From positions 192,817-256,816 of the forward strand of contig JBAZYP010000001.1 in NCBI GenBank assembly GCA_041659265.1: a stretch of DNA of 64,000 nucleotides, written 5' to 3'. This document shows positions 25,510-47,394 of this stretch, piece by piece. Made by a program: the position numbers and the translations under genes. The stretch is from Candidatus Pacearchaeota archaeon (GTDB lineage Archaea > Nanobdellota > Nanobdellia > Pacearchaeales > GW2011-AR1). The notes under the pieces are model-generated. The model did no database searches. It was not told the origin of the DNA and was given only the letters and a program-made list of their open reading frames with translations. How positions within the stretch are numbered: position 1 is the stretch's first letter; the number at the start of each line of letters is the position of its first letter.

Positions 25510-26655
25510 ATGACAACCTATGAATCTTCTGGAGTTAATATTAAATACGGGGATAGTGTATCTGAAATCCTTTATAATGCATCAAAAGCTACTTGGGATA
25601 TTAGAAAATTTGTTCTTGGTGAAGTAATTTCTCCATTTGATTCTTTTTCTGGATTAAGATATATTGATGTTTCTAATCTTCCTAATGGAACTGCATTATA
25701 TAATGGATATGATGGAATTGGAAGTAAAACTGAAATAGCTGAAAGAACAAAGAATCATAGGTATGCTGCATTTGATTTGCTTGCAATGGTTTGTGATGAT
25801 GCTGTTGTTAAGGGATTTGAACCTGTTATTGTTGGTAGTGATCTTCAGGTAAAATCTTTAACTAGAAAAGATGGAAAACCTTTTTTAGATGAAGTTAATC
25901 AGTTGGCAGAAGGATATGTTAATGCTGCTAAAATGGCTCAGGTTGTTATATTAAATGGAGAAACAGCAGAATTACCTACTCGGGTTAAAGGTTATGGAGA
26001 ATTTAATTATAATTGGTCAGCAGGTGTAATTGGATTTGGAAATAAAGAAAGATTATTTACAGGTTTTGAAATTAAAGAAGGAGATTATTTAATAGGATTA
26101 TATGAACATGGATTTAGATCAAATGGAATTAGTTTATTAAGAAAAATAATGGAAGAAACAAAAGGAAAAAATTGGCATAAAAAGAGAACAAAATTCGAAT
26201 TAAAAGAAACTTATGGTGAATTATTAAATACCCCTTCAACAATTTATTCAACTGCAATTGTTGATTTGTTCGGAGGATATAATTTAGAAAGAAATCCTAG
26301 AGCAGAAATTCATGGTGTTGTTAATATTACTGGTGGTGGAATTCCTGGTAAACTTGGAAGAGTATTAAAACCAAGTGGAATGGGTGCAATAATTGATACT
26401 CCATGGGAAATTCGTGATATAACTAGGGAAATAATAGATTTAGGAAAAATTAAATCAAAAGAAGCGAATAAAACTTGGTGTATGAATAATGGAATGATTG
26501 TTATAACACCTGAACCTGATAGGGTAATTGATATTATTCTTGAAAATGGGATAAATTCAAAAAAAATTGGTAGGGTAGTTAAAGAACAGGGAATAAAATT
26601 AGCTAATATTTTAACAGATTCTAAGAAGAAACCGTATTTTGTTTTTGAAGCATAA
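25510..26655 (+). CDS. purM: AIR synthase-like protein (PurM family)
   Basis: 'YESSGVNIKYGD', 'GYDGIGSKTEIA', 'DLLAMVCDDAVVKGFEP', 'NITGGGIPGK'. It starts 2 nt after the purN-like stop. Confidence 0.7.
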   Translation: MTTYESSGVNIKYGDSVSEILYNASKATWDIRKFVLGEVISPFDSFSGLRYIDVSNLPNGTALYNGYDGIGSKTEIAERTKNHRYAAFDLLAMVCDDAVVKGFEPVIVGSDLQVKSLTRKDGKPFLDEVNQLAEGYVNAAKMAQVVILNGETAELPTRVKGYGEFNYNWSAGVIGFGNKERLFTGFEIKEGDYLIGLYEHGFRSNGISLLRKIMEETKGKNWHKKRTKFELKETYGELLNTPSTIYSTAIVDLFGGYNLERNPRAEIHGVVNITGGGIPGKLGRVLKPSGMGAIIDTPWEIRDITREIIDLGKIKSKEANKTWCMNNGMIVITPEPDRVIDIILENGINSKKIGRVVKEQGIKLANILTDSKKKPYFVFEA

Positions 26656-27158: not shown

Positions 27159-30023
27159 ATGGTAGAAATTCCTGTTATTAATGTAGATTTAAATGTAGAT
27201 AAGTTTAAACCAGAGAATCTTGTTTGGGGTGATAAATATAATGCAAAGAAGGATAAGAAGAAAATCTATAAGATTTTAGCTTATCTAGCTATTATTGCTG
27301 CATTAATTATATTTTTTAGATTTGCTCTTTTAGCTTATTTGTATATTGCTAATTTACCAAAAATAAATAGTTATGATGCAAATATAGAAAGGATCGCTTT
27401 AAGCGATGATGGAAAACAAGTTTATATTAAATTAACGGGTGGAAACTCTAAAGAGATTGAATCTATTAAATTTATATTTAGAACAAATGAATCTGAATAT
27501 TTTTATGAAACAAGAGATGGAATTGGAGAGATATCTTATGAACAAACGAATTCATTCTTAAGTTATTTTGCTCATCCTGAATATGAAGGAAGTTATGATT
27601 ATTCTATTAATGCAATAGATATTGGTTTAGATAATTTTAAAGGAATAATAAAAGTTGAAGTTTCAATAAAATATAAGGATCAAAATACTGGAGAAGTTAA
27701 GGAAACAAAAACAATTGATAGTTCTAAAAAATCAGATATTAATGTTGTAAGAAGCGGAGGATATAGTGGAGGAGGCGGGGGCTCTGGAAGTAATGGCGGA
27801 GGATCAGGTGGTGGAAGTGGAAGTTCAGGAGGAGGAAGTGGAAATAATCAGGATAATAATAACAATAGTAGTAGTAATCCTATTTGTAGTTCGAATAATG
27901 ATTGTAATGATAATGTAATCTGTACTAATGATTTATGCATTTCTGGAACAAGGTGTGAACATAATCCTCAGGATAATCTTTGTGTACAAAATGAAAAATG
28001 TAATCCCGTATATGGATGTGAATATTTTGAAAATAATTCATTATTTATTGGATATGATTCATTAACTGGATATAGAATTGAAAAAGTTAATTGGAGTTCT
28101 TTAATTAATGTTATTGAATATGATAATGGCAGTTTAAAAAAAATAGGAACGAGTAATGGCTATGATTCTTCAGCGTTGTCTATTCAAAAAATAAGTTATG
28201 GTTTTGGAGGATATATGGAGTTTAGTGTAAATGAAACAAATACAAAAAAGAAAATAGGTTTTGGATATGGTAGCAATAGTACTAGCGATAGTGATCTTAA
28301 ATTTGCAATTGAATTGAACTCTAGTGGAAATATTTGGATTTGGGCTACTGTTTCTAATGACGCAAGACAACAATATGATCTAGGAATTAATTATCTAACT
28401 GGAGATAAGTTTAGAATCGCAATTGAACAATATCTTGATAATAATTTTATACCTCAATTTAAGGTAGTTTATTATAAGAATTCAGTTAAAATATTTGAAG
28501 ATAAGGAAATTAATTTTCCTCCAGGGATACATGATTGGTATATAGATAATTCTTTTTTTAGTCCTAATTCTTCAATTGAAAATGTAATTATCTCTTATCC
28601 AGGAAATTGGAAAAATGATAGTATAATTTATTCTTCTCCAAATGCTACAATTTATGGTGATGGAAGTATCAGTAGACCTATTGATTTTAGAACAATAATT
28701 ACCAATAAACTTCCTTTAAAGGATAATTTAACTATTATATTAAGGCAAGGTATTTATTCTTCTCCATTATTTAATTATCAATTGTATCCAAATAGTGGTT
28801 ATTACATAATTCAACCTTATAATAACGAACATATTATTATAAACGGTTCAATAATTATTAATGGAAATAGATTAATAGTTAGGAATCTTGAAATAATTGG
28901 TTTTGCTAACAATTCAAAAAGAGTAACTAATTTATCTGGAAGTAGTTTTCCTTTAGTTAATTTTACAGATGGAATAATAATTTATGGAGATGATGTTAGA
29001 CTTATTAATAATTATGTGCATGATATGAGGCAAGGAATTTCTGCATGGTCTAATAATGAGTATTCAGAGATTTATGGTAATATAATATTTAATAATGGTT
29101 GGGATGCTCCTGATCGGGGACATGGTCATGGATTTTATATTCAAAATGATGATGACATTAAAAGAATTATATCGAATGTTGTTTTTTCAAATCTAGGAGG
29201 TTATTCTATTCATGCATATACTCAGGCTGGAAATTTATCAAATTTATATTTTGAAAAAAATATTATTTTTAGAAATTCAAATCTAATTGGAAGTTGGTAT
29301 GGTGCTCCAGTTACTAATTTAACCATGAAATCAAATTATTTTTATTCTGAACTAGCTTTGGGTTATCAAAAACCCGATTATATTAATGATTTTGGAAATA
29401 TAATAAATAATTATTTTAATGGAGTAAGTATTAGATATTTTCAGAATTTAAGTTTTTATAATAATACTATGTTTAATAGAGCAGATAGCGATTCATTATC
29501 TTATATTTGTTATATGGAGCCTTGTTTTTTTAATAATAATATTGATTATAATTTATATTATAAAAATAGTACTGGTAATCCTTTACATATAGAGGGTTCT
29601 AGTCTAGGTAATTGGTTTAATTTGTCTTCTTGGCAGTCTGTAACTGGTTATGATATAAATAGCCAAGTTATAAGGAGTTTGCCACAGAATTTAATTATCA
29701 TTGAACCTAATATATATGAAATAGGTCGTGCAAATATTATTATTTATAACTGGCAGAATTTAACTTCTGTAAATATTAATATTTCTAATTTAGGATATTC
29801 TAATGGTGAAAATTATGAAATTAGGGATATACAGAATTATGATGAAATTTTATTAGAAGGTATTTATGATGGAAGTATGATTAATTTGCCTATGTATTTG
29901 ACAAAAACTCAGGGATTTAATGGCGATTTTACAGATTCTTATCATAATATTTCTGGAGGATATTTAACTCCAACACATACTGATTCAAGATTTAATATAT
30001 TTTTAATAAGAAAGAAAATTTAA
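27159..30023 (+). CDS. Third paralogue of the surface-protein family: shared N-terminal cassette with a different payload
   Basis: The first ~210 aa match the 3547 and 7744 products. They are followed by a Gly/Ser hinge, an N/D/C-rich knot (CSSNNDCNDNVICTNDLC), a ~250-aa domain and a distinct beta-helix ('IIINGNRLIVRNLEIIG', 'GHGHGFYIQND'). Confidence 0.8.
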   Translation: MVEIPVINVDLNVDKFKPENLVWGDKYNAKKDKKKIYKILAYLAIIAALIIFFRFALLAYLYIANLPKINSYDANIERIALSDDGKQVYIKLTGGNSKEIESIKFIFRTNESEYFYETRDGIGEISYEQTNSFLSYFAHPEYEGSYDYSINAIDIGLDNFKGIIKVEVSIKYKDQNTGEVKETKTIDSSKKSDINVVRSGGYSGGGGGSGSNGGGSGGGSGSSGGGSGNNQDNNNNSSSNPICSSNNDCNDNVICTNDLCISGTRCEHNPQDNLCVQNEKCNPVYGCEYFENNSLFIGYDSLTGYRIEKVNWSSLINVIEYDNGSLKKIGTSNGYDSSALSIQKISYGFGGYMEFSVNETNTKKKIGFGYGSNSTSDSDLKFAIELNSSGNIWIWATVSNDARQQYDLGINYLTGDKFRIAIEQYLDNNFIPQFKVVYYKNSVKIFEDKEINFPPGIHDWYIDNSFFSPNSSIENVIISYPGNWKNDSIIYSSPNATIYGDGSISRPIDFRTIITNKLPLKDNLTIILRQGIYSSPLFNYQLYPNSGYYIIQPYNNEHIIINGSIIINGNRLIVRNLEIIGFANNSKRVTNLSGSSFPLVNFTDGIIIYGDDVRLINNYVHDMRQGISAWSNNEYSEIYGNIIFNNGWDAPDRGHGHGFYIQNDDDIKRIISNVVFSNLGGYSIHAYTQAGNLSNLYFEKNIIFRNSNLIGSWYGAPVTNLTMKSNYFYSELALGYQKPDYINDFGNIINNYFNGVSIRYFQNLSFYNNTMFNRADSDSLSYICYMEPCFFNNNIDYNLYYKNSTGNPLHIEGSSLGNWFNLSSWQSVTGYDINSQVIRSLPQNLIIIEPNIYEIGRANIIIYNWQNLTSVNINISNLGYSNGENYEIRDIQNYDEILLEGIYDGSMINLPMYLTKTQGFNGDFTDSYHNISGGYLTPTHTDSRFNIFLIRKKI

Positions 30024-32346: not shown

Positions 32347-32457
32347 TTAACCAGTTCTTCTTTGCTTTCTTTTCTTCTTGACACGTCTAAGTCTCTTTCT
32401 TTGCCATTTCCAACGCATTTGGTTCTTCTTCTTCCACCTACGACTCGATCTTTTCAT
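32347..32457 (-). CDS. rpl41e: Ribosomal protein L41e (36 aa)
   Basis: Absent from the ORF track because it is shorter than 60 aa. My translation is MKRSSRRWKKKNQMRWKWQRKRLRRVKKKRKQRRTG, the extremely basic R/K/W pattern typical of archaeal L41e. Confidence 0.7.
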   Translation of the reverse strand: MKRSSRRWKKKNQMRWKWQRKRLRRVKKKRKQRRTG

Positions 32458-32997: not shown

Positions 32998-33303
32998 TTA
33001 TTCAAGAAGTTTTGCTTCTAGTGTTTTTGCTAGAATTTCATCAAAAGGCATTATATCTTGAATTTCTTGATGGTAGCAGGAGGAGTCTAATTCGCATGAT
33101 TGTCTATCGTAATGTTTTTTGCAATTATGATTTGGAAGAGGGCCTCCTGCAAATTCATCATGATTAATTATACCAAGAATTGGCAAATTTTGATTATCTA
33201 TAATAAACCATTTACCTTCTATTTTTTCATTATCATCGATTTTTTCACAGGAATAATTAATTTTTATTAGATATTTCATTTTATTGATTTTAGATACCAA
33301 CAA
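32998..33303 (-). CDS. Hypothetical Cys/His-containing small protein (last gene of the sugar operon)
   Basis: A 101-aa ORF that overlaps the upstream epimerase gene by 28 nt. It contains 'HNCKKHYDRQSCELDSSCYH'. Confidence 0.4.
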   Translation of the reverse strand: MLVSKINKMKYLIKINYSCEKIDDNEKIEGKWFIIDNQNLPILGIINHDEFAGGPLPNHNCKKHYDRQSCELDSSCYHQEIQDIMPFDEILAKTLEAKLLE

Positions 33304-34199
33304 TAGGTTTTATCTAAACCTTCCTCCATATTTACTTTTGGGACCCATCCTAATATTTCTTTAGCTTTATTATTATCAAGGCAACTCTTTTTTTGTTCTC
33401 CTTTTTTTATTGGTTCGTATTTAGGATCAAATTCATTTTTAAAATATCTATTTAATCTTGAGAAAATTTCTATAATATCTGTTTCTTTACCAGTACCAAT
33501 ATTATAGGTATCACTTTTATTATCTTTTAAGGCTAGTAAGTTTGCATAAGCAACATCTTTTACATAAACAAAATCTCTTGTTTGAATTCCTCCAAATATT
33601 ATTGGAGTTTTTCCTAATATCATATTATTTAAAAATATTGATATAACTCCTGCTTCACCATGGGGATTTTGTCTTGGTCCATAGACGTTTGAATATCTTA
33701 AAGCAGTATATTTAAGTCCATAAGTTTTATTATAAAAATTAAGATATTTTTCTATAGCTAATTTAGCACAACCATAAGGAGAAACTGGATTTTCTTTATG
33801 ATCTTCTTTTGTTGGAAGTTCTTTTGTATCTCCGTAAATAGCTCCACCTGTTGAAGAGAATATTAAATGTTTAATATCATTTTTTCTTGAAAGTTCAAGC
33901 AGGTTTAATGTTGATAAAATATTTATATTTGCATCTTTAATTGGATCTTCAACTGATTTTCTTATATCTATTTGAGCTGCTAGATGGTAAACAATATCTG
34001 GTTTAACTTGTTCAAAAATATTAGAAACAGATTCGTGATTTGAAAGATCTATATTATGGAATTTTGCTTTAGGATTAATATTTTCTAATTTTCCTGTTGA
34101 AAGATTATCAATTATATGAACTTCTTCATTTTTTTTAATAAGCAAATCTGAAAGATGACTTCCGATGAATCCTGCTCCACCTGTAATAAGAATTTTCAT
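33276..34199 (-). CDS. NAD-dependent sugar epimerase/dehydratase (GalE-like)
   Basis: 'MKILITGGAGFIGSHL', 'YGCAKLAIEKY' (the YxxxK catalytic motif) and 'SNVYGPRQ'. Confidence 0.8.
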   Translation of the reverse strand: MKILITGGAGFIGSHLSDLLIKKNEEVHIIDNLSTGKLENINPKAKFHNIDLSNHESVSNIFEQVKPDIVYHLAAQIDIRKSVEDPIKDANINILSTLNLLELSRKNDIKHLIFSSTGGAIYGDTKELPTKEDHKENPVSPYGCAKLAIEKYLNFYNKTYGLKYTALRYSNVYGPRQNPHGEAGVISIFLNNMILGKTPIIFGGIQTRDFVYVKDVAYANLLALKDNKSDTYNIGTGKETDIIEIFSRLNRYFKNEFDPKYEPIKKGEQKKSCLDNNKAKEILGWVPKVNMEEGLDKTYCWYLKSIK

Positions 34200-35275
34200 T
34201 TTATTCTCCTTATGTTTTTTATAAATTCAGATGTTCTTGGTGGGCAACCTGGAATATTAATTTTCTTGGATTTATAAGAGCAATTACCAAAATTTATTAT
34301 TTCAAAATTATTCTCATTATTTTTTCCAATATTTAATTTAAGGTTATTTAATAGATTAGGATCTATTTTTTTTGTTTTTTTTAAAGATAGATATAATGCA
34401 CCAATACAATTACTGCAAGATTTATTGTTTATAATAGTTACTTTAAATTCTCTTTCTAAGAATTTTAAACCCGGCATATCTTTTTTAAAACTTATTTTAA
34501 TGTCTTTAACCCTTTCTCCAATAATTTTTATTTTATTTTTATTAATTAATTTAAGATGTTCTATTTTTTTTGGAGATATTCTCATAATTCTTGCGGATAT
34601 ATAATCTAGAGAGAATATATCCTTTGATGCAAGAATTATATTAGCTCTTTTTGGTTCATAAAGTTCATTTCCTATTATTCCATCAATTATTCCATAAACA
34701 TTATTTATTGAATTACTTAGATCATAAACTGCTTTAGATAAACCAATTTCATGGAATCTTTTTTTATCTTTATCTTTTAATAGTCCTTTTAAATTTTTAA
34801 TAGAACAGGAGATTGTACTAACATAATTTGTTTTTAATTTAGCAATACTTATTACAATATCAAAGATAAATACTTCTTCAGGCAGTTCAATTGAATTAAG
34901 TATTTTTCCATTTATTTTTATTTTTTTATATTTTGATTTTTTAAAGTCTATCATTTTAATATTCAATTTTTTACATTCATCAAAAATTCCTGTTTTTTTA
35001 TAGGCATCTATTGTATCAATATTTACACTTGAAGATTCTCCAACAACTAATTCTTTTGTTATTGGAATTAATAATTTAATAATGCATCTAAAAAATATCG
35101 GATTAGTAGTTTTTGCTTGATTCGATGAGAATATTCCTGTGCAATTTGGTTTTAATAGGACTTTTTTATTATGTATTGAATTTAAAATTCCAGAACTTTG
35201 TAAAATATTTTTTACTTTTGGTAAAAGCTCTTTTTCTTTATAATTTTCATGTTTTATTATCGAAACAGTTTTCAT
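34196..35275 (-). CDS. DUF362-like protein
   Basis: 'VLLKPNC' near the N-terminus and the overall length and pattern are reminiscent of DUF362. There is a C-terminal Cys cluster ('CSNCIGALY', 'GNCSYK', 'GCPP'). The call is from memory only. Confidence 0.45.
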   Translation of the reverse strand: MKTVSIIKHENYKEKELLPKVKNILQSSGILNSIHNKKVLLKPNCTGIFSSNQAKTTNPIFFRCIIKLLIPITKELVVGESSSVNIDTIDAYKKTGIFDECKKLNIKMIDFKKSKYKKIKINGKILNSIELPEEVFIFDIVISIAKLKTNYVSTISCSIKNLKGLLKDKDKKRFHEIGLSKAVYDLSNSINNVYGIIDGIIGNELYEPKRANIILASKDIFSLDYISARIMRISPKKIEHLKLINKNKIKIIGERVKDIKISFKKDMPGLKFLEREFKVTIINNKSCSNCIGALYLSLKKTKKIDPNLLNNLKLNIGKNNENNFEIINFGNCSYKSKKINIPGCPPRTSEFIKNIRRIK

Positions 35276-35276
35276 T

Positions 35277-36314
35277 TTAATTTAATAATCTCCTAGCTTG
35301 AATATAAGCTCCAATTAAATTAGGATTTTCTTGAGTTATCTCTTTTGAAGATTTTATATTTATAGAGGTTTTTTCTTCAGATAATCCCCCAGATATGCCA
35401 TTTTTAAATAATTTATAAGAATCCATAATTTCTCCTGAAAGTATGATTTCAAAATCTTTTTTATATGGTTTTAATTCTTCGTTTGCTTTTGCTATTGAAT
35501 AACCTAAAAAATTTCCCATTAAATGATACGCTATTTTAGCTGAAGATTTATCCCTAGCTAAAGAGGAAATTTCTTTTGCATCTTTTTTTTCACCTGTAAA
35601 CATTTCATATAGATTTGAAACTCCTCTTGCTGAAACTAAAGAACCTATTTTATAATCTTTTGAACCATTTTCAAGAACTTTTTTAATACTTTTTTCAATT
35701 GTTATTTTTTTTATATATGAATCTATTTTATCTAATGGGATTGAGAGATTTAATCCTAAATCATTTAACAAAGGATTATCTTCAGAATTAAAAATATGAT
35801 TTTTATTAAATCTTATTCTATTTAAGATAGTACCTTCTTCATCAATCACTGAACTACCTAAACCTGAACCTAGAACTAAATATAACAATGGTTTTTTTGT
35901 ATAATTAAAGATACCTAACCCCCCACAATCTGCATCGTTATCAATTGAAGTATTAGAAATACCGATACCTTTGAAAATTTCTGGAATATTTTTTCCAATA
36001 AATGAACCTAAAACTGTTGATCTATAAACTGAATTATCTGTTGCAATTAATCCTGCTAAACCAATACCTGCAACCAAAATCTCTTTATTTTTAGTAAATT
36101 CTAAAACTCTTTTTTCAAGATCTTCGACAGCATCTTTTTCAGCTAATGAATTATAATCATGTTTCCATGAATATTTATCAGTTATATTTCCATTTAAATC
36201 GAATAAACCCGCTTTAATCGCAGTACCCCCCATATCAAGCGCTAGTATTTTTTGTTCCATATTCATCCTCTTTTGAAAAACCCATTGATAATGCAAAAAC
36301 TCCGAGTATTCCAA
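35277..36314 (-). CDS. ROK/BadF-type sugar kinase
   Basis: 'ILALDMGGTAIKAGLFD', 'GIGLAGL', 'NDADCGGLG'. The true start is probably Met17 or Met19 (36266 or 36260), because the listed 5' end overlaps the upstream gene by 80 nt. Confidence 0.65.
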   Translation of the reverse strand: MEYSEFLHYQWVFQKRMNMEQKILALDMGGTAIKAGLFDLNGNITDKYSWKHDYNSLAEKDAVEDLEKRVLEFTKNKEILVAGIGLAGLIATDNSVYRSTVLGSFIGKNIPEIFKGIGISNTSIDNDADCGGLGIFNYTKKPLLYLVLGSGLGSSVIDEEGTILNRIRFNKNHIFNSEDNPLLNDLGLNLSIPLDKIDSYIKKITIEKSIKKVLENGSKDYKIGSLVSARGVSNLYEMFTGEKKDAKEISSLARDKSSAKIAYHLMGNFLGYSIAKANEELKPYKKDFEIILSGEIMDSYKLFKNGISGGLSEEKTSINIKSSKEITQENPNLIGAYIQARRLLN

Positions 36315-36834
36315 GAAATATATTAGATAAATAATCTGTATCTCTTGGAGGTTCTTTTATAACTATTCCTTTAGGAAGTCTATTATTGAAATATTCTTTT
36401 ATATTGTCTTTTTGTTTTTTTATTAAACCTATTTCATATTGCCAATTCTTTTTTTGATAAATTAGGTTGTTATTAATAAAATTCATTTCTTGGATAATTG
36501 ATTCATCTTCAGATAATTCTTGAGAATCAAATATTTCAATAGCTTTTTCAAGATGTGAACGTGCTTTTTCTATTTCCTGTTTTTCTGGTGGACAAGGTAT
36601 TACCATCTCATTAACATAACAAAGTGAATTATCTGATAAATAATAAATGGATCTATTCATTTCTTTTAATGTTTCTTCAGCTGGAATTATATATTCAATT
36701 AATGGATTTTTTTCTTGAAGATTTTTTATTTTTTTATTTCTATTTGTATTGAATGTTATTGGAGAAATTCCCCAATATAATCCTGTAAGAATTAAAGATA
36801 CTCCTGCAATTTTGAATATTTTTTTTTCTAGCAT
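36235..36834 (-). CDS. Hypothetical bitopic membrane protein
   Basis: TM helices at both the N- and C-terminus. It is embedded in the operon, 3 nt after the upstream stop. Confidence 0.45.
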   Translation of the reverse strand: MLEKKIFKIAGVSLILTGLYWGISPITFNTNRNKKIKNLQEKNPLIEYIIPAEETLKEMNRSIYYLSDNSLCYVNEMVIPCPPEKQEIEKARSHLEKAIEIFDSQELSEDESIIQEMNFINNNLIYQKKNWQYEIGLIKKQKDNIKEYFNNRLPKGIVIKEPPRDTDYLSNIFLGILGVFALSMGFSKEDEYGTKNTSA

Positions 36835-36837
36835 TTT

Positions 36838-37929
36838 TTATTTTGAATAAAAGTTTTCTATTAATAATGGACAAAGGCTTTGACATTTATTGCATCCTGC
36901 ATTACTTGATTCTGGATTGCAACTTCTTTTATGATTTCTTTCATGAGTTATTTTTCTATCCATTTCTTTAAGATAATCTAATCTGCACATATCTCCTGCA
37001 TGAACGCTAGTTAAAGTTGAAATGATTCCTTGTTCAGTATCAGCTAAAGTCGGAAAACCTACATGTTCTCTTGGTGGAATAGTTGTTATTTTACCTACAT
37101 TATACATGGCCGCAAATGCTGCTCCACTTGCTGAAGCATATTGATCACAATTATTGTTTACTTCTGTAACAATGGGGCCTAACATTTGGAATGGGACATA
37201 TGAACCATATTCTTCTCTTAGTCTAATTATTCCTGGGCCTATATCTGAAAGTGGTTGATGACTCATTGGTTCAACAATTGCTTGCATACCTATTTCATCA
37301 GCTATTTTATATAATCTCATTTGTTCAGAAAGTTCCCATAGGTGAGTTTTATCATAGGCTTCTGTTACTCCATTTGGTCTGAATGTAGAACCTATATGCA
37401 TAGTAACATTATATTCTTTGAATAAATTGAACATGTCATCTAGTATTGGTAGATAAGGACTATTTACATTATTTTTCATCATATAATTTAATAATACTCC
37501 GCCCTGTCTACTTGTTGTTAATATGTCTCTTTTTCCAATTTTATCTAGATCTGATAATCTTAGTGGAACAAGATTCATAGTCATATAATCAATTCCACCT
37601 AAAACTGAATCTTGTATTTCTTTGAAAAGTTTATCTGGAGTAACTTCTCCATTGTTTTCAACTGAAACCAGAATCGGTGCAACTTTTCCAAATGCAATAT
37701 TTGGGTAATTATCAATTCCATATCTCCAAAGTGGATAAGGAAATCTTTTTGTACTCAGGTCAATTATTGTATGGACTCCAAGTCTAGCTCCAATTGATAT
37801 TTTTTCTTTTTCATTTTCTATTTGTTCTTCTGAATTAGCACCTATAATTAGATTTATTTTTGTTTCTAAATCTTTTCCAACACCAATTCTAACTTGGTTC
37901 ATTTTGTTTCCTATTGTTATAATATCCAT
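36838..37929 (-). CDS. Divergent ThiC/BzaF-superfamily (radical-SAM-type) enzyme
   Basis: It is colinear with the ThiC blocks. NANIGNS matches 'NLIIGANS', DLSTGG matches 'IDLSTKR' and GVDFMTIHAG matches 'GIDYMTMNL'. GIVSRGGS matches 'TTSRQGG', GDGLRPG matches 'GSTFRPNG' and EGPGHVP matches 'EPMSHQP'. 'PFQMLGPIVTE', 'PREHVGFP' and a C-terminal 'CNKCQSLC' are also present. Confidence 0.7.
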   Translation of the reverse strand: MDIITIGNKMNQVRIGVGKDLETKINLIIGANSEEQIENEKEKISIGARLGVHTIIDLSTKRFPYPLWRYGIDNYPNIAFGKVAPILVSVENNGEVTPDKLFKEIQDSVLGGIDYMTMNLVPLRLSDLDKIGKRDILTTSRQGGVLLNYMMKNNVNSPYLPILDDMFNLFKEYNVTMHIGSTFRPNGVTEAYDKTHLWELSEQMRLYKIADEIGMQAIVEPMSHQPLSDIGPGIIRLREEYGSYVPFQMLGPIVTEVNNNCDQYASASGAAFAAMYNVGKITTIPPREHVGFPTLADTEQGIISTLTSVHAGDMCRLDYLKEMDRKITHERNHKRSCNPESSNAGCNKCQSLCPLLIENFYSK

Positions 37930-37932
37930 TTT

Positions 37933-39225
37933 TTATTTTCCATTTTTCATTGATTGAATATAAGGAGATAAAAATGAGCAAAGATAGCCGTCAAATATAG
38001 CTCCTGCTCCAGTTATGTTTCCTTTTCTTTTATTAGGGGGAAGATATGTTGCAGTAATACTTGTGGTTCTTTTAGAGTCTTTTTGATTTCCAAAAACAGC
38101 ATTATACTCCATGGAGTTATTAACATGAATTTTATCGTCATAATATTGATTCAATTCTTGCATATTTTTTACATGCTCTCCATGTTCTATATAATAAGTA
38201 GTTGCATAACATGCAAGTTTTACTAATTTTTTGATTTCACCTTTAAATTCAAGGTTAATACTTGTTCCAAGATAGAGTTTTATTCCAGCATGAGAATGAA
38301 CAACAACTAATCCCTCAAAATTCATATCTTCTAGTTTTTCTGTTCTTGATTTGTTTTCATTGCACATTTTAAGACCTTGATGCAACTGGTCTTCTTCAGC
38401 CTCATTTATTGAAAGAATATCTGCTCTTCTTGCAACATCGAAATATCCATTTAATTTAGGAAATTCATTATTAGTAATATATTTTGAAAAAGAGTTTGTT
38501 CCAATAAATATTCCTGCATTAGGATTTTTAGATTTTATATAATCGATTAATGAATGATAATCTTTTGGTTCTCCTTTATTTAATCCTCCAATTGCAACTA
38601 AAGTGCCCTCATCATCCGGAATATGGATATTAAATTTATCATTTAATTTAAGATTTTTTAATTCTCTTCCTTTTTTATCCGATAACATTAATTTGTACTT
38701 TCCATTTTCTAAGCATAATGTACTTGGTTTATAGTCATTAGGAACCGAATGTCTAAATAAATCTTCTAAATTTTTTTCTTTAATAAACTCTTCAATTGAA
38801 TTAGGTCTTGAACCACAATAAATTGTTCTTGCATTTCCAAATTCTTTATATGCATGATAACCTGCTCTAGCTGAAATTGCTGGACTTCCTCCTAATTCAG
38901 TTTTAACAACATGGCTATTTGATAAGTTTAAATCCGTTCGTGGTCCATTTCTAAAATTTTTTACTTCATCTTGAATAATTTTACCATCTAAAGAAAGCTC
39001 AATATCAGAATTTAGTCCTTTTTCAATAATTTCTTTAAAAGTTTTAATATTATTTTCATTAATATGTCCTCTTTTCAAATATTCTTGAGTTATATTATTT
39101 AACTCTTGATCAGTTACTTCAATTTTATAATCCATTGTAGCTTCTGTAATCCATGCAACAATTGGATTATGAAACATATTTTCTTCCATTAAGGTTTGTT
39201 CAAGACCTTTATGAATATTTATCAT
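37933..39225 (-). CDS. ADP-dependent sugar kinase-like protein (ribokinase superfamily)
   Basis: 'ELGGSPAISARAGY' resembles GGNAGIMAN, 'LSINEAEEDQL' resembles the NExE motif, and 'ITGAGAIFDGY' resembles the GxGD anion hole. Confidence 0.5.
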   Translation of the reverse strand: MINIHKGLEQTLMEENMFHNPIVAWITEATMDYKIEVTDQELNNITQEYLKRGHINENNIKTFKEIIEKGLNSDIELSLDGKIIQDEVKNFRNGPRTDLNLSNSHVVKTELGGSPAISARAGYHAYKEFGNARTIYCGSRPNSIEEFIKEKNLEDLFRHSVPNDYKPSTLCLENGKYKLMLSDKKGRELKNLKLNDKFNIHIPDDEGTLVAIGGLNKGEPKDYHSLIDYIKSKNPNAGIFIGTNSFSKYITNNEFPKLNGYFDVARRADILSINEAEEDQLHQGLKMCNENKSRTEKLEDMNFEGLVVVHSHAGIKLYLGTSINLEFKGEIKKLVKLACYATTYYIEHGEHVKNMQELNQYYDDKIHVNNSMEYNAVFGNQKDSKRTTSITATYLPPNKRKGNITGAGAIFDGYLCSFLSPYIQSMKNGK

Positions 39226-40643
39226 AATAATTCCTCCAATCTTTTTTGTAATTTTTCTCTTAAACCGGGTTCTATTTTATTTAATTCATTAAAGACTTCT
39301 TCTAATTTTTTTTGAGCTTTTGATTCGTTTCCTTTAATCCAGTTTAAATTTAGTGTAAGACTATTTTCATTACTTGATCCTCTGATAAATAGTCCATATT
39401 CATTATTATCAATCCTTATTCCATCATCATTTGGATAAGATGAATATGAATTAATTTTTGATAATTTATTAACTAATTCTGCTGAGTTATTTTCTGTATC
39501 AACTCTAATTTCAGGATAAAATCCTCTAATTTCTGAACCCATTTCTTTAATTTTTTCTCTTAATGTTTTATTTTCATTTTTTAATTTTTGACTAAGATGA
39601 ATGAATTCGAAGGTATTATAGACTCCATCATCAATTCCATCAGGTCCAAAATTATGTAAGGAAATTTCAGAACCTGGAATTAAATTTTCTTTACATATTG
39701 GAATAATATTATTTCTTCCTCTTTTTCTTTCAATTACTTCAATACCTCTTTTATTAAGATAGTCTTTAATAATCGAACTTACACAATATTCTGTTACAAA
39801 TTTATCACATCCAGAAAATTCAGCTCTTAAAGCTGAAATAATAGGTGGAGGAACCAGATAGTCATCAATTGCTAAACCAAATCTATCTCCATCCCCATCT
39901 ACAATTGCTATAAAATCATGTTCTAAAATATCCTTTATAGATTCAGATAACTTTTTGAAATTATCTGGATTTGATGGATCTGGTGAACCGGAAGTTAATC
40001 TAAAAAATGGATTAGGAGTTTCTCTAAATGAATAATATTTAACTCCTTTTCTTGATGCTAATTCTTTAAATATTTCAAACGAGGTTCCTTGTAATGCATC
40101 ATATATTATTTTTGAACCAGATTCAATTACTCCTATTTTTTTATCTAATCTATCGATATAATCTTCCTTAAGCAATCTTTCTGCATATATCACCTTTGAT
40201 CCATTTCTAATTTCATTCATTAAATGAGCTAGTTTTGGTTTATTAGATAAAGAATTAAAAATAAGTTTTATTCCATTAAATTCAGGTCTTTGATGAGAAG
40301 CAGTAATCATTGCTCCAGATATTCCTAATCTTTCCCTTTCAATATCAAACATTGGAGTAGTATTATTATATCCTGCATAAATAACATTAATACCTTTTTT
40401 GGTAAGTTCTTCAGTAAGTTCATCTATTATAATTGGAGTATTTATTCTTCCATCTCCTGAAAGCATGAAATATTTTTCATTTCTTTCTAATAATTTATTA
40501 GCAATGTTATTTCCAATAAAACTAAATGATCCCTTAGGAATATTTTTTCCTCTAGAATCTAATTGATGATAACCATTATCTAATTTTGATATCTTTTCAT
40601 ATAATTTAGCAAGTTTATCGAATTCAAATGGATTGTATTGCAT
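39222..40643 (-). CDS. Phosphohexomutase (PGM/PMM family)
   Basis: Active-site loop 'AMITASHQRPEFNGIKL' and metal loop 'VDGDGDRFG'. It is the first gene of the operon. Confidence 0.8.
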   Translation of the reverse strand: MQYNPFEFDKLAKLYEKISKLDNGYHQLDSRGKNIPKGSFSFIGNNIANKLLERNEKYFMLSGDGRINTPIIIDELTEELTKKGINVIYAGYNNTTPMFDIERERLGISGAMITASHQRPEFNGIKLIFNSLSNKPKLAHLMNEIRNGSKVIYAERLLKEDYIDRLDKKIGVIESGSKIIYDALQGTSFEIFKELASRKGVKYYSFRETPNPFFRLTSGSPDPSNPDNFKKLSESIKDILEHDFIAIVDGDGDRFGLAIDDYLVPPPIISALRAEFSGCDKFVTEYCVSSIIKDYLNKRGIEVIERKRGRNNIIPICKENLIPGSEISLHNFGPDGIDDGVYNTFEFIHLSQKLKNENKTLREKIKEMGSEIRGFYPEIRVDTENNSAELVNKLSKINSYSSYPNDDGIRIDNNEYGLFIRGSSNENSLTLNLNWIKGNESKAQKKLEEVFNELNKIEPGLREKLQKRLEELL

Positions 40644-41088
40644 AAAGAAGATAAAAATTCTTTTAATTTATTTGTTGTCCATATCTTTCCTTATCAAGAT
40701 AGTATTACAGATATAGGATATCTTCTCCAAGTGAATATATTTTTCAATATTATTATAAAAAGGGATATTGAAAACTAGTGTGAATATATTATATAAGAAA
40801 TTAAAAAATTTATAAATAAAAAATATATAGTTTTTAATTTATTAGGAATAAAATTATTTTATTGTTTTATTATTAGTTTGAATAATATTTATTATAAATT
40901 ATATAATAATAGAAGAAATCAATAGATATTATTCCTTTTTAATAGATTAAATTATTGAATACTTATTAAGGTATAAATTTAATTCTGATCCTTATTTATG
41001 ATTTTTATATATTCTAGAATATATTAAATAGGTTTAAAATATAAATAGCTAATATATTTTAGTATATTTTCACTAGTGAATATATTGG

Positions 41089-41104
41089 GAAAGCTTTAAA
41101 TATA
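41089..41104 (+). promoter_or_regulatory. BRE/TATA-like box (GAAAGCTTTAAATATA)
   Basis: The same 16-mer as at 2163-2178. It lies 4 nt after a GTGAATATAT/TTCACTAGTGAA site and about 130 nt upstream of the ATG at 41235. Confidence 0.45.
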
Positions 41105-41234
41105 TTCTTTCTATATAATTGTAAGTTAGGGCTTTTTATAGAGTATAAAAAGCAAAAAAATAAGAGTCCAATATAAAGAAGGACTATGAAAACATCATGT
41201 TTTCAAGCCCTCCGTTTTATAATATAACAACAAA

Positions 41235-42236
41235 ATGAAACGTAGGATAATAAAACAAGGCCATAACACGCTAACCATAACCTTGCCCTCAGAGTGGTCA
41301 AAAAAACTAAATCTGCAAGCAGGGGATGAAGTTGACTTATTAGAGGAATCTGGTACACTTGTCATAAATGGGAAGCAGAATAATGGTTTTAAATCAACTA
41401 CTTTAGATATTACTGGTTTTTCTGTACCTATGCTTTGGAGATTTTTTCAATCTGCTTATAGGGAAGGTTATGATGAAATAAGAATAAAATATGATCCAAA
41501 TGTTACTGAATATGAAGGGGTCTATAATTATTATGCAACTCATTTTGATTTTTCAAGAATAGGTGGAAATTTTACAAAAAAATTACCTGCTATTGAAATG
41601 TTAACTGATTTAGTCAATAGATTTATTGGCATGGAGATAATTGATCATGGTGAAGGATATTGTGTGATAAGAGAAATGGGAGAAGTTTCAGCAAGAGAAT
41701 TTGATAATTCATTACGAAGGATTTTCTTATTATTGATTGATCATTTTGATAAAGTTATTAGTGTTATTAAGAATAATAGGATCAATGATATGATGATTTG
41801 TAAAACAATTTATGCTATGGATATAAATGTTGATAGATTTATTGATTATTGTTGTAGAATAAATAATAAAATTAAAGATTCGAGTTTTCAAAAGAATAAA
41901 CCAGTTATGTTTTCTACATTATTTTTAATGGAATTAATGGGTGATGAATTCAAGTATATAGGTACTCATATTGCAAAATCCACAAAAAAAATTGATGAAA
42001 TAGTCCCTTTTATAGAGACTGTTAAAGAACATTTTGAAATGTATTATCATTTATTTTATAAGTTTAATAGAGAGAATGTAATTAAATTTGGATTAAATGA
42101 TTATAAGATATATAATGATCATTTTAAATGGAAAGAATCTAAGAATAAAGATGCTCAAAGTATTAGAAGACATTTTATGCAGATATCCAAATTCATATTC
42201 TGTTTAATGGAACTCAGGATTGAAATGGAGTTTTAA
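41235..42236 (+). CDS. AbrB/SpoVT-domain plus PhoU-like transcriptional regulator
   Basis: The N-terminus 'MKRRIIKQGHNTLTITLPSEWSKKLNLQAGDEVDL' is an AbrB-type swapped hairpin. The helical C-terminal ~200 aa resembles archaeal PhoU-like regulators. Confidence 0.65.
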   Translation: MKRRIIKQGHNTLTITLPSEWSKKLNLQAGDEVDLLEESGTLVINGKQNNGFKSTTLDITGFSVPMLWRFFQSAYREGYDEIRIKYDPNVTEYEGVYNYYATHFDFSRIGGNFTKKLPAIEMLTDLVNRFIGMEIIDHGEGYCVIREMGEVSAREFDNSLRRIFLLLIDHFDKVISVIKNNRINDMMICKTIYAMDINVDRFIDYCCRINNKIKDSSFQKNKPVMFSTLFLMELMGDEFKYIGTHIAKSTKKIDEIVPFIETVKEHFEMYYHLFYKFNRENVIKFGLNDYKIYNDHFKWKESKNKDAQSIRRHFMQISKFIFCLMELRIEMEF

Positions 42237-46420: not shown

Positions 46421-47335
46421 ATGAAAATTAAGTTAAAAAAAGGTAAACAAAGAGAATTAATTCTTTTAGCTAAAAATGATAAAAACTGGAAAGAATTTGC
46501 AAAGTTAGTTAATATTTCTGAAAAATATTTATGTAACGATTTAAAGAATGAAAAAATATTAATTTCAGAAATGCTATATTTGAATCTTTGTAAAATTTCA
46601 AATAAAAATTTTGATGAATTTATTATTGAAAGATTAGATAATAATTGGGGAAAATCAAAAGGAGGAAAAATCTCTAGAGGAAATACTAAAGATTTTAAAG
46701 AGCCAAAAGAGTCTTTAGAATTAGCTGAATTAATAGGAATAATTCTTGGCGATGGTCATGTTGAAAAATTAAAGATCGGTTCAAAAATAAGATGTTATTC
46801 CATTGTTGTTACTGGTGATTCTAGACATGATAAAAAGTATTTAATAAAATATGTTAATAATCTATTTAAAAAATTATTTAATGAAAATGGGAGAATTCTT
46901 TATTCTAAGGATAAAAATAGCATCTATATTAAATTACATGGTAAGAAAATTGTAGATTTTATAGAAAGTAAAGGTGTTTTTGGAGGTAATAAAAAAAGAA
47001 ATAATCAGGGTATACCTAAATGGATTCTTATAAATGATTCTTATTTAAAAGCAACTTTACGTGGTTTAATTGATACTGATGGATGTATATATTATATTTC
47101 TAAAAATAATAGAAATTTAAGAATATCGTTTACGAGTTATATTCCTAATTTAATGAATGATGTAAGAAATTCATTTTTAAAATTAGGTTTTAATCCTTCT
47201 GAAATTATAAGATGTAAAGATATAACCATTAGTAGAAAAGAAGATATTAAAAAATACTTGAAAGAAATCGGTTTTTCAAATGATAAACATTTAAAAAGAT
47301 ATCAAAATTTAGTTCAATATGCCCCTATCGTCTAG
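46421..47335 (+). CDS. Free-standing double-motif LAGLIDADG homing endonuclease
   Basis: Motifs 'LAELIGIILGDGHV' and 'LRGLIDTDGCIY'. The last four codons (APIV) and the TAG stop lie inside tRNA-Glu. Confidence 0.85.
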   Translation: MKIKLKKGKQRELILLAKNDKNWKEFAKLVNISEKYLCNDLKNEKILISEMLYLNLCKISNKNFDEFIIERLDNNWGKSKGGKISRGNTKDFKEPKESLELAELIGIILGDGHVEKLKIGSKIRCYSIVVTGDSRHDKKYLIKYVNNLFKKLFNENGRILYSKDKNSIYIKLHGKKIVDFIESKGVFGGNKKRNNQGIPKWILINDSYLKATLRGLIDTDGCIYYISKNNRNLRISFTSYIPNLMNDVRNSFLKLGFNPSEIIRCKDITISRKEDIKKYLKEIGFSNDKHLKRYQNLVQYAPIV

Positions 47336-47394
47336 CTGGCCAAGGATTTAGCCTTCTCAAGGCTGCGACCCGGGTTCGAATCCCGGTGGGGGCA
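47321..47394 (+). tRNA. tRNA-Glu (anticodon CUC)
   Basis: Hand fold: acceptor GCCCCTA/TGGGGGC, D stem GTCT/GGAT (two G-U pairs), anticodon arm TAGCC-TTCTCAA-GGCTG, T arm CCGGG-TTCGAAT-CCCGG, discriminator A. Confidence 0.85.

Follow-up and report, generated by a model that had tools for sequence, protein, structure and literature searches.

The seven-gene locus at 33276-40643 of the window (the whole 64,000 nt stretch of DNA analysed) may represent a conserved DPANN operon for a sugar-phosphate pathway centred on a radical SAM enzyme of the ThiC family that has acquired a new function, a reading to which we assign a probability of roughly 45%. The enzyme, here called ThiCL, lacks residues that ThiC requires for making the thiamin pyrimidine, and so probably makes another, uncharacterised metabolite. 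Most likely it represents a third functional type within the ThiC superfamily, with a sugar phosphate or a phosphorylated ribosyl compound as its substrate; this compound would then be phosphorylated or nucleotide-activated. The window comes from the genome of a Pacearchaeota (DPANN) archaeon described as tiny and symbiotic.

ThiCL (36838-37929, minus strand, 363 aa) had been recognized as ThiC-like in the preliminary description of this DNA, and a Pfam profile search agrees (PF01964, E 6e-54). A profile of the ThiCL family also matches the PDB entries 3epm and 4s25, with E values of 1e-42 to 1e-44, showing a shared core fold region. The NCBI and JGI annotation of the window protein is ThiC. 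Against the NCBIfam ThiC equivalogs (TIGR00190 and NF009895), however, ThiCL scores only 185 and 169 bits, under half of the respective cut-offs of 410 and 460. It is about 70 residues shorter than ThiC, without the N-terminal domain, and has one more invariant Cys, placed eight residues before the cluster motif. By sequence comparison, ThiCL belongs to a rare and isolated clade confined to DPANN archaea and CPR bacteria: its relatives, all from DPANN and CPR records, form 63 clusters at 90% identity, and a library clustered at 50% identity contained a single full-length representative (618 bits), followed by a match of 207 bits. By pattern scan, the clade occurs at six loci among 185,579 species genomes, and on 21 metagenome contigs.

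Alignments to CcThiC, AtThiC and NCBIfam-verified ThiCs allowed residues to be mapped onto the roles described for ThiC (PMC4389238, PMC11117688). ThiCL retains all of the ThiC residues for SAM, the second metal and the Fe-S cluster; Leu250, Arg334, Arg377, Glu480, Glu413, the second-metal pair His417 and His481, and the C-terminal C-x2-C-x3-C motif, which is also present in verified short ThiCs, are all kept. Also retained are the residues that anchor the phosphate (Arg184 and Ser140/Arg141) and the 2′-OH-binding Glu. In contrast, residues that recognize and process aminoimidazole ribotide (AIR) are replaced, namely Asn219 by Ile, His313 by Asn, Asp374 by Ser or Ala, Tyr440 by Gln and Cys474 by Thr, together with Tyr277 by Ile in the DPANN subgroup only. 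The ThiC variants N228D, D383A and C474S form no HMP-P (PMC11117688), and the replacement of Asn219, Asp374 and Cys474, where such tested substitutions fall, argues that ThiCL is not an HMP-P (thiamin pyrimidine) synthase.

A precedent for such a change of product is 5-hydroxybenzimidazole synthase (BzaF/BzaA/BzaB, TIGR04386), a ThiC paralogue in which the same radical start leads to another product. The active site of BzaF is nearly identical to that of ThiC, with three hydrogen-bonding differences only, and Asp383 is changed to Asn. ThiCL carries many more changes, and is thus more diverged from ThiC than is the one member known to have another function; it scores 136 bits against the TIGR04386 cut-off of 700, and no cobamide genes were found near ThiCL.

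Recomputed open reading frames and junctions confirmed the seven closely packed minus-strand genes described initially at 33276-40643. From 5′ to 3′, the successive junctions are a 4 nt overlap, two gaps of 3 nt, an 80 nt overlap, a 1 nt gap and a 4 nt overlap. The 80 nt overlap assumes a TTG start for the ROK-like gene, and shrinks to 26 nt with the annotated ATG. An eighth, Cys/His-rich ORF (32998-33303, minus strand; ATG form 32998-33279, 93 aa) is a gene in the public annotation and, as had been noted, overlaps the end of the GalE-like gene (by 4 nt in the ATG form). It forms a singleton cluster with no homologue in any related locus, and as an orphan its membership of the cluster is doubtful. 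Close gene packing is general in the window, which belongs to a compact genome, and the coupling by itself is therefore unremarkable. What goes beyond chance is the conservation of the gene set between genomes.

The initial assignments of the four sugar-phosphate partners hold at differing depths. The first gene (39222-40643, minus strand, 473 aa) encodes a divergent alpha-D-phosphohexomutase of the PGM/PMM type, which has the Pfam domains PGM_PMM_I, II and III and the motifs TASH, DGDGDR and GSEISLH, and aligns over its full length with Pseudomonas aeruginosa PMM/PGM (3bkq, E 1e-17); its best NCBIfam match is archaeal GlmM, at 111 bits versus a cut-off of 439. The GalE-like protein (33276-34199, minus strand, 307 aa) is an extended SDR of the NDP-sugar epimerase/dehydratase family (Pfam Epimerase, E 7e-68; motifs GGAGFIGSH and YGCAK), scoring 199.5 bits against TIGR01179 (galE), under the cut-off of 262. 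The ROK-like ASKHA protein (35277-36314, minus strand, 345 aa from the TTG; 35277-36260, 327 aa in the publicly annotated ATG form) can be placed in its proposed family weakly and by its N-terminal half only, where the Pfam ROK match reaches 37 bits. It matches the sugar kinase 3r8e (E 1e-7) and has DxGGT and NDAD motifs, while the zinc motif CxCGxxGC and the ExGH motif are absent from its sequence and alignment.

The fourth partner, which we call K430 (37933-39225, minus strand, 430 aa), had no Pfam, NCBIfam or PDB sequence match, and a word-index search returned three relatives only. The earlier description as an ADP-dependent-type sugar kinase holds at the level of predicted fold: an AlphaFold (AF2) model with a pLDDT of 88 gave as its best Foldseek matches the ADP-dependent phosphofructokinases and glucokinases 3drw, 5od2 and 5k27 (E about 1e-12, TM 0.55-0.61), covering the large and small domains of this branch of the ribokinase superfamily. 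Identity to that family is approximately 12%. Across nine K430 homologues the NxxE motif is invariant, but the catalytic Asp of the kinases' GXGD motif is always Ala (TGxGA). Because of this replacement, K430 is suggested to phosphorylate an acidic acceptor, for example phosphate, or merely to bind a ligand; missing the Asp, it could also be inactive.

The DUF362 protein (34196-35275, minus strand, 359 aa) was correctly described as DUF362-like and Cys-rich (PF04015, E 9e-34). It combines a LarA-N-like domain with a C-terminal module containing four invariant cysteines (C287, C290, C332 and C344); K148, K160, N161, K163, H175 and D198 are also invariant. The 18 top Foldseek matches of its AF2 model (pLDDT 94) were all racemases of the LarA family (E 3e-5 to 7e-4), nickel-pincer nucleotide enzymes of the lactate racemase superfamily, and DUF362 and LarA_N belong to one Pfam clan, which also includes DUF2088 (PMC11770544). 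The likeness is partial (TM about 0.42); the protein has the four-Cys module in place of the LarA C-terminal domain, and no larB, larC or larE genes were seen near the cluster. The module resembles, at a non-significant level, the motifs around the proximal cluster in the small subunit of [NiFe]-hydrogenase. The remaining gene (36235-36834, minus strand, 199 aa) is a lineage-specific insert, a singleton with no Pfam or NCBIfam match that recurs, among the related loci, only on contig L031 of the same organism. It does have hydrophobic segments, as expected of the membrane protein proposed earlier, but hydropathy places one at each terminus, so that it is not strictly bitopic.

Context was counted over 12 independent archaeal-type loci carrying ThiCL. 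A ROK-like gene lies near ThiCL in nine of these, a phosphohexomutase gene in eight, a DUF362 gene in seven and a kinase-like gene in six; the cluster members are thus not scattered, with ThiCL, ROK-like and DUF362 genes adjacent or near to each other in 7-9 of the 12 loci. The ThiCL proteins of these loci are 60-70% identical, and the gene order is shuffled. Linkage of the members is further supported by a fusion of the kinase-like gene to the mutase gene in one genome (locus L036, 915 aa), and by a ROK-DUF362-ThiCL triad of DPANN type on a bacterial-type contig that encodes MurJ, PolyA_pol and BlaR/BlaI, an apparent transfer. At another locus (L041), an IS110 element sits within a triad that is otherwise intact. 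Partners are missing, wholly or in part, from three of the 12 loci: two have no partner gene within 10 kb of ThiCL, and the third (L040) has the mutase and kinase-like genes without ROK or DUF362. Additional members occur elsewhere, including a cupin PGI (L038) and a transaldolase (L007).

The gene set recalls Leloir-type activation of NDP-sugars, which uses a kinase, a phosphohexomutase, a sugar-1-phosphate nucleotidyltransferase and GalE. All four are encoded at locus L008 in one tight, coupled, single-strand run (PGM, kinase-like, NTP_transferase, GalE, ThiCL, F9, ROK), with the GalE-like gene directly upstream of ThiCL. The window cluster has three of these activities, with an NTP-transferase gene 14 kb away, but each of its enzymes falls well under the threshold of its named equivalog, and among them stand a DUF362 protein and a radical SAM enzyme, neither of which belongs to the standard route. 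Seven CPR loci show another arrangement (Tmk-like kinase, ThiCL, Pol-beta nucleotidyltransferase-like protein and NUDIX hydrolase) that shares no orthologous partner with the DPANN contexts; for this reason, a ‘phosphorylate then nucleotidylate’ theme uniting the two is offered as an interpretation.

From its residues and its neighbours, we infer that ThiCL would cleave SAM reductively and abstract a hydrogen adjacent to the carbon that carries the phosphate in its substrate. The substrate would be a sugar phosphate or a phosphorylated ribosyl compound other than AIR, and the enzyme would cause it to rearrange or fragment. The mutase and K430 would supply the substrate or process the product; the ROK-like kinase and the DUF362 protein, the latter perhaps as an isomerase/epimerase or an electron donor, would also participate. 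The GalE-like SDR of the window, the NTP-transferase of L008, and the P-loop kinase, Pol-beta nucleotidyltransferase and NUDIX protein of the CPR loci make it probable that the compound is nucleotide-activated. The preliminary description envisaged a rearranged sugar or nucleotide-sugar of unusual type, or a cofactor, and such a product would fit this gene context. The ROK kinase, mutase, GalE, PGI and transaldolase are also housekeeping enzymes that might cluster for other reasons, which we count against a dedicated pathway.

Two of the alternatives keep AIR as the substrate. ThiCL could be the HMP-P synthase of these reduced organisms, with the adjoining ribokinase-superfamily and P-loop kinases, which could in principle phosphorylate HMP-P, standing in for ThiD. 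Its PF01964 match, public annotation and preserved SAM, metal and cluster residues agree with this, and the window contains PurN-like and PurM-like genes (the latter 10 kb from the cluster) that could provide AIR. Yet the linkage to PurM is not conserved, the equivalog scores are far too low, Tyr440 and His313 are replaced in addition to the three positions where tested changes in ThiC stop HMP-P formation, and none of about 13 ThiCL neighbourhoods contains thiD, thiE, thiM, thiN or thi4. We consider this improbable, and by formal family cut-offs ThiCL is not assigned to thiamin synthesis. Slightly better placed, though still unlikely, is the use of AIR with the radical cascade steered to another heterocycle or ribose fragment, in a novel cofactor or base route. 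Both known family members, ThiC and BzaF, use AIR; ThiCL keeps the phosphate anchor and Glu413; its changes at Asp374 and Asn219 recall the variants D383A and N228D, which turn AIR into a C4 aldehyde phosphate and formate (PMC11117688); and a PurM-like gene in the window and the nucleotide-type partners of CPR ThiCL are compatible with such a route. Against it, the contacts to the aminoimidazole, Asp374 to N3 and Tyr440 stacking on the C5 amino group, are gone (PMC4389238, PMC11117688), no purine gene is linked to ThiCL in the other loci, and the DPANN partners are sugar-phosphate enzymes. We count the PurM-like gene, by which AIR may be available, against the sugar-phosphate reading. A complete purine pathway is generally missing from DPANN and CPR organisms, which we count against the use of AIR.

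The other two alternatives dispense with a ThiCL-centred pathway. The cluster might be a set of housekeeping sugar-activation genes (glucokinase, phosphoglucomutase and GalE) with ThiCL and DUF362 as unrelated passengers, an idea in keeping with the general tight packing, the central-metabolism enzymes in some clusters and the loci that lack partners. We regard it as unlikely, given that the association recurs at 60-70% ThiCL identity despite the shuffled order, that the triad appears on a bacterial-type contig and around the IS110 element, and that the partners are highly atypical of housekeeping enzymes (K430 without its Asp, the ROK-like protein without zinc and ExGH motifs, and scores far below equivalog cut-offs). 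An anti-phage defence or nucleotide-depletion module is disfavoured as highly improbable. The kinase, nucleotidyltransferase and NUDIX partners of the CPR loci might point there, and the NUDIX protein matches the PADLOC candidate family PDC-S07 (E 9e-8), with a very weak match for the nucleotidyltransferase; but the seven window proteins and the CPR Tmk-like kinase match no PADLOC model, the DPANN partners are metabolic enzymes, and 50,697 phage records contained no ThiCL, only distant matches to canonical thiC.

The sugar-phosphate pathway centred on ThiCL would probably be controlled by the divergently encoded AbrB/MazE-domain, PhoU-like putative regulator (41235-42236, plus strand), which has Pfam MazE_antitoxin at its N-terminus and is named ‘phosphate uptake regulator’ by JGI. 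The regulator gene is found near ThiCL in six loci, the window included; its orthologues sit next to the cluster in L013/L041, L036, L040 and, in two copies, L038. Between it and the mutase gene lie 591 bp (40644-41234) that hold all of the window's exact copies of AATATATTCAC, at 40731-40741, 40780-40790 and 41076-41086; the total for one mismatch is not above chance. We infer that this region is a candidate operator/promoter, and the core ATATATTCA occurs twice beside the orthologous regulator in L036.

Between positions 33276 and 40643, the minus strand of the window carries seven ORFs in a head-to-tail arrangement, and ORF calls bore out the preliminary description of an array with overlapping or 1-3-nt junctions. 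In order of transcription, the genes encode a divergent phosphohexomutase of the alpha-D type (39222-40643), a 430-aa kinase-like protein (37933-39225), a ThiC-like protein (ThiCL, 36838-37929), a lineage-specific protein that is hydrophobic at both ends according to hydropathy and homologue searches (36235-36834), a ROK-like ASKHA protein (35277-36260), a DUF362 protein (34196-35275) and a GalE-like extended SDR (33276-34199). The successive junctions are a 4-nt overlap, two 3-nt gaps, an 80-nt overlap, a 1-nt gap and a second 4-nt overlap; use of the publicly annotated ATG of the ROK-like gene shrinks the 80-nt overlap to 26 nt. The last gene also overlaps by 4 nt a minus-strand 93-aa Cys/His-rich ORF (32998-33279), for which no relative was found among public protein clusters or in the related loci. 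The window has a G+C content of approximately 26%, and archaeal replication factor C subunits are encoded beside the cluster. Its ThiC-like protein is identical to one annotated in a Candidatus Pacearchaeota MAG contig, which makes the source a DPANN archaeon. Because tight junctions are frequent throughout this genome, the packing alone is no evidence of function.

ThiCL matches the Pfam ThiC family PF01964 (E 6e-54), and its scores fall below the ThiC equivalog cut-offs (NF009895, 185 versus 410 bits; TIGR00190, 169 versus 460; NF006763, 129 versus 650), which control ThiCs passed in the same search at 445-627 bits. Against the BzaB model TIGR04386 it scores 136 bits, with a cut-off of 700. 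Judged by its sequence, ThiCL is not ThiC. Residues were mapped by pairwise alignment to Caulobacter ThiC, the numbering of which (used below) agrees with the published His417, His481, Cys474, Asp374 and Arg377; by alignment of a 20-sequence family profile with Arabidopsis ThiC; and by a direct multiple alignment that included five short ThiCs scoring above the NCBIfam cut-offs. Residue roles were taken from the ThiC structure paper (PMC4389238) and a 2024 intermediate-trapping study (PMC11117688). ThiCL keeps Leu250 and Arg334, which contact the SAM adenine, Arg377 (SAM carboxylate and substrate phosphate), Glu480 (SAM ribose), His417 and His481 (second metal), Glu413 (substrate 2'-OH) and the C-terminal Cys motif that holds the [4Fe-4S] cluster; the SAM, second-metal and cluster positions L58, R141, R184, E288, H224, H289, C346, C349 and C353 of ThiCL are invariant.

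The remaining substrate contacts are different. Asn219 (substrate 3'-OH) is replaced by Ile, His313 (phosphate) by Asn, Asp374 (imidazole N3) by Ser/Ala, Tyr440 (which stacks on the 5-amino group) by Gln and Cys474 (the H-atom relay) by Thr, and across 20 family members all five replacements show little or no variation. Tyr277, a further phosphate contact that corresponds to ThiCL position 86, is Ile in the DPANN subgroup and Tyr in CPR. The SAM, metal and cluster apparatus is intact, whilst the phosphate and 2'-OH pocket is partial; the substrate pocket of ThiCL would be lined by Ile28, Asn119, Gln142, Ser181, Gln248 and Thr282. The ThiC variants N228D, D383A and C474S use up AIR yet yield no HMP-P (PMC11117688). 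BzaF, the sole further paralogue to have been characterized, differs from ThiC at just three hydrogen-bonding positions (PMC12661338), whereas several AIR contacts are changed in ThiCL; Asp383 is Asn in BzaF, in contrast to Ser/Ala at that position in ThiCL. The comparison with ThiC and BzaF therefore indicates an active site of which the radical-generating half is retained and the substrate half rebuilt.

ThiCL also has an extra invariant Cys eight residues upstream of the cluster motif. Its C-x2-C-x3-C spacing (versus the textbook C-x2-C-x4-C) was considered as a hallmark and rejected, since NCBIfam-verified short ThiCs have x3 too. The extra Cys recurs, together with a CPL ending, in a second clade of short ThiC-like proteins of approximately 360-400 aa that is also sub-threshold, at 195-233 bits against the ThiC models (the single proteins P0189, P0192, P0195, P0199, P0201 and P0242, and positions 1628-2725 of L042, a Rhodopseudomonas infernalis locus). 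Members of this clade retain Asn219, Tyr277 and His313, with Asp374 changed to Thr and Tyr440 to Met. The ThiC-like gene of L042 was discarded as a guide, as its only coupled neighbour is an unannotated 424-aa protein that has no relation to the kinase-like protein.

The ThiCL clade is rare and sharply set apart. A word-index search recovered 63 clusters at 90% identity, hosted by Pacearchaeota, Woesearchaeota and Nanoarchaeota, by the CPR groups Paceibacterota, Shapirobacteria and Parcubacteria, and by a few probably mis-binned MAGs, and a pattern scan found six loci among 185,579 species-representative genomes plus 21 metagenome contigs. An exhaustive search of 1.84 billion representatives at 50% identity gave one full-length ThiCL, at 618 bits, with the superfamily's next-best member at 207 bits. 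A phage origin was rejected, as phage records gave distant canonical thiC matches only. Searches of the accessible literature on ThiC-like enzymes of DPANN and CPR and on DUF362 function returned no description of the clade or the cluster.

The conservation of the cluster was assessed by calling ORFs in all fetched loci, searching them with the window proteins and combining the results with precomputed Pfam neighbourhoods. The partners of ThiCL recur, in variable order, across 12 independent loci with a DPANN-type ThiCL and usable flanks: the ROK-like protein in nine, the mutase in eight, DUF362 in seven, the kinase-like protein and an AbrB/PhoU-like regulator in six each (for the regulator, the window included), and an adjacent GalE-like gene in two. 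The order is ROK-DUF362-ThiCL in locus L001 and ThiCL-ROK-DUF362 in others, and locus L008 has a tight single-strand run of PGM, kinase-like, NTP-transferase, GalE, ThiCL, small protein and ROK genes. A natural 915-aa fusion of the phosphohexomutase with the kinase-like protein (L036, 4475-7210) argues that these two act together. A cupin-type phosphoglucose isomerase takes the usual place of DUF362 in L038; the L007 cluster is extended by a class-III aminotransferase, an IMPase-family phosphatase, a Zn-ADH and a transaldolase; and in L041 an otherwise intact triad of ROK-like, DUF362 and ThiCL genes is split by an IS110 transposase. In L001 the DPANN-type triad sits amid bacterial genes (MurJ, class-II CCA/poly(A) polymerase, BlaR/BlaI), which suggests that the module was transferred as a unit. 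In L040 the mutase and kinase-like gene are present and ROK and DUF362 were not found; within 10 kb of ThiCL, L037 and L039 contain none of these partners.

A different context, likewise conserved, accompanies ThiCL in seven CPR loci, comprising a thymidylate-kinase-like P-loop kinase, ThiCL, a protein of approximately 300 aa whose Pol-beta nucleotidyltransferase signature is weak, and a NUDIX hydrolase. The ThiCL module appears to have moved between DPANN and CPR, two unrelated groups of ultrasmall symbionts. Among minor features of the neighbourhoods, a protein family of approximately 100 aa (Y-x-V-K-G-V-E-E-V-x-D-x-x-D-E-F-E) adjoins ThiCL in five loci (L008, 11089-11403; L036, 9376-9675; L038, 11647-12075; L041, 4198-4689; L017, about 4565-4813), and a second small family (C-G-x-[IV]-T-V-L-W-T-G-I...) is found in L036 and L038; neither family has a Pfam match, and neither is present in the window. 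The L036 cluster also holds an acyl-carrier-like PP-binding protein (8634-8927) and an AsnC-type regulator.

The kinase-like protein had no match in Pfam, NCBIfam (E<=0.01), a phmmer search of the PDB or a six-sequence profile search of the PDB, bar a spurious hit of 16 bits, and the word-index search found only three relatives among 5.8 billion proteins. Only structure prediction with Foldseek placed the protein: its AlphaFold model (pLDDT 88) has ADP-PFK/GK structures as its top eight Foldseek neighbours (E 7e-13 to 1e-11, TM 0.55-0.61), followed by adenosine kinases. The modelled protein has an ADP-dependent sugar kinase fold, with a predicted ribokinase-like large domain and a small lid, so that its earlier designation as an ADP-dependent-type kinase was right at the level of the fold. 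An NxxE motif (N274, E277) is invariant among nine homologues, as is Ala409 of a C-terminal TG-x-G-A motif, where it replaces the catalytic base Asp of GXGD; we take TG-x-G-A to be the counterpart of the ribokinase/PfkB GXGD on the basis of sequence pattern rather than residue-level structural superposition.

The mutase has Pfam PGM_PMM domains I, II and III above cut-off, reaches no equivalog cut-off, and aligns over its full length with P. aeruginosa PMM/PGM, including a catalytic Ser loop (TASHQ) and a metal loop (DGDGDR). The ROK-like protein matches PF00480 at 37.4 bits (cut-off 22.9) over residues 24-157 only, in its N-terminal half, with DMGGT and NDAD motifs and a PDB match to 3r8e (E 1e-7). 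Its sequence lacks the Zn motif CxCGxxGCxE and the sugar-binding ExGH, and in the 3r8e alignment the Zn-motif region has the residues 'KNH' and is devoid of a Cys cluster; a separate canonical ROK with the Zn and ExGH motifs is encoded in L013/L041. The GalE-like protein, with GxxGxxG and YxxxK motifs, a Pfam Epimerase match (E 7e-68) and a TIGR01179 score of 199.5 bits (cut-off 262.3), is by these signatures a predicted NDP-sugar SDR.

In the DUF362 protein (PF04015, 117.7 bits, cut-off 24), four Cys are invariant, as are Lys, His and Asp residues. The sole significant Foldseek neighbours of its model (pLDDT 94) are LarA-family nickel-pincer racemases, in agreement with the Pfam clan that DUF362 and LarA share (PMC11770544). 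A profile search against the PDB did not return LarA, and likened the Cys module to the [NiFe]-hydrogenase small subunit at a non-significant E of 3; no larB/C/E maturation genes were seen in the neighbourhoods. Asgard DUF362 relatives were tried as a guide and proved uninformative, their context comprising a GHMP kinase, an OMPdecase-RraA fusion, ApbA and CoA transferases, and no ThiC-like gene.

To our knowledge, the ThiC fold supports only two reactions, HMP-P and 5-hydroxybenzimidazole synthesis; AIR is the starting compound in each case, and the two are among the most complex rearrangements catalysed by enzymes. The association of ThiCL with the mutase/kinase-like pair, the ROK-like protein and DUF362 is conserved in the DPANN loci, and our leading reading, which we hold at a probability of roughly 0.45, is a conserved DPANN sugar-phosphate operon around a ThiCL whose substrate is not AIR but another ribosyl compound or a phosphorylated sugar. 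ThiCL would abstract hydrogen from this compound in a SAM-dependent manner, and the substrate or product would be further phosphorylated or nucleotide-activated, because ThiCL has a phosphotransferase partner in both contexts and, in some loci at least, a nucleotidyltransferase partner as well. As its general base is missing, the kinase-like protein may phosphorylate an acidic acceptor, for instance a phosphate, which is the kind of step that ThiD performs after ThiC; a non-catalytic role would fit equally. DUF362 could be an epimerase or isomerase, given its LarA-like fold and the phosphoglucose isomerase in its place in L038, or an electron donor via an Fe-S cluster bound by the four Cys. 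The preliminary description had suggested an unusual sugar or nucleotide-sugar for the envelope, or a new cofactor route; its observation of the cluster is confirmed and this interpretation is supported in part.

Other explanations fit parts of the data. AIR might still be the substrate, converted to a new product; the window does hold PurM-like and PurN-like genes 10 kb from the cluster, but no other ThiCL locus has this linkage, and we regard this as unlikely. It is similarly doubtful that the neighbours are unrelated housekeeping genes, an idea with which the commonness of tight junctions and the partnerless L037 and L039 are compatible, and which sits poorly with the recurrence of the partners and the mutase fusion. 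That ThiCL is a true thiamin ThiC, as its superfamily match and retained radical residues might imply, is improbable: when the ordinary thiamin-operon alternative raised at the outset was checked, no thiD/thiE/thiM or other thiamin gene was found in the window cluster or in approximately 13 neighbourhoods (+/-10 kb) with Pfam listings, and the equivalog scores are low. A defence system can be given very little credence, as the window proteins are without any PADLOC match.

Returning to the sugar-phosphate operon, its fullest form is rather tentative, and somewhat less probable than not. ThiCL might represent a third catalytic type of the ThiC superfamily, one that would rearrange a phosphorylated sugar, a ribosyl compound or an NDP-sugar by previously unknown radical SAM chemistry. 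Its partners would be a LarA-like Fe-S protein and a new kind of ADP-kinase-fold enzyme that lacks the catalytic base, and the product (a building block for glycans, a lipid head group or a cofactor) would be peculiar to ultrasmall DPANN/CPR episymbionts, with the module exchanged between domains. A rebuilt pocket with retained radical machinery would extend ThiC chemistry to a new substrate, and the restriction of ThiCL to ultrasmall symbionts points to a lifestyle-tied function, for example, a surface glycan or salvaged-sugar route. The cluster is not categorically new, since all component folds are already known; a third ThiC-family reaction is nonetheless a credible prospect here, as is a new DPANN/CPR-restricted pathway. 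ThiCL is currently mis-annotated as ThiC, and the thiamin-synthesis capacity of DPANN and CPR is thereby overstated. The kinase-fold and DUF362 proteins belong to uncharacterized families, for which the cluster offers an assay context.

Between the cluster and the divergent AbrB/PhoU-like regulator, AATATATTCAC occurs in three exact copies (40731-40741, 40780-40790 and 41076-41086); at one mismatch its window-wide count is not above chance. The core ATATATTCA is repeated beside the orthologous regulator in L036 (3891-4000), so these repeats may be a candidate operator. Downstream of the cluster lies a tiny, highly basic, eL41-like ORF (about 32380-32456, minus strand; MKRSSRRWKKKNQMRWKWQRKRLRRV...).

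Elsewhere in the window, the PurN-like (24732-25508) and PurM-like (25510-26655) genes are adjacent on the plus strand, one base apart, and both score under their NCBIfam cut-offs (75 versus 150 and 174 versus 236 bits); the pair is unusual for a reduced DPANN genome and a possible source of AIR. Three huge paralogous plus-strand ORFs (3547-7641, 7744-11136 and 27159-30023; 1364, 1130 and 954 aa) have near-identical N-termini, MVEIP[VI]IN...KPENLVWG...KIYKIL, and no Pfam match. An 869-aa minus-strand ORF (20203-22812) includes an intein that carries a LAGLIDADG endonuclease, and a separate plus-strand LAGLIDADG ORF (46421-47335) terminates within, or right next to, a tRNA gene (47321-47394). 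Lastly, a plus-strand homologue of diadenylate cyclase with a DAC domain (51190-51795) suggests that this Pacearchaeote may use c-di-AMP signalling.
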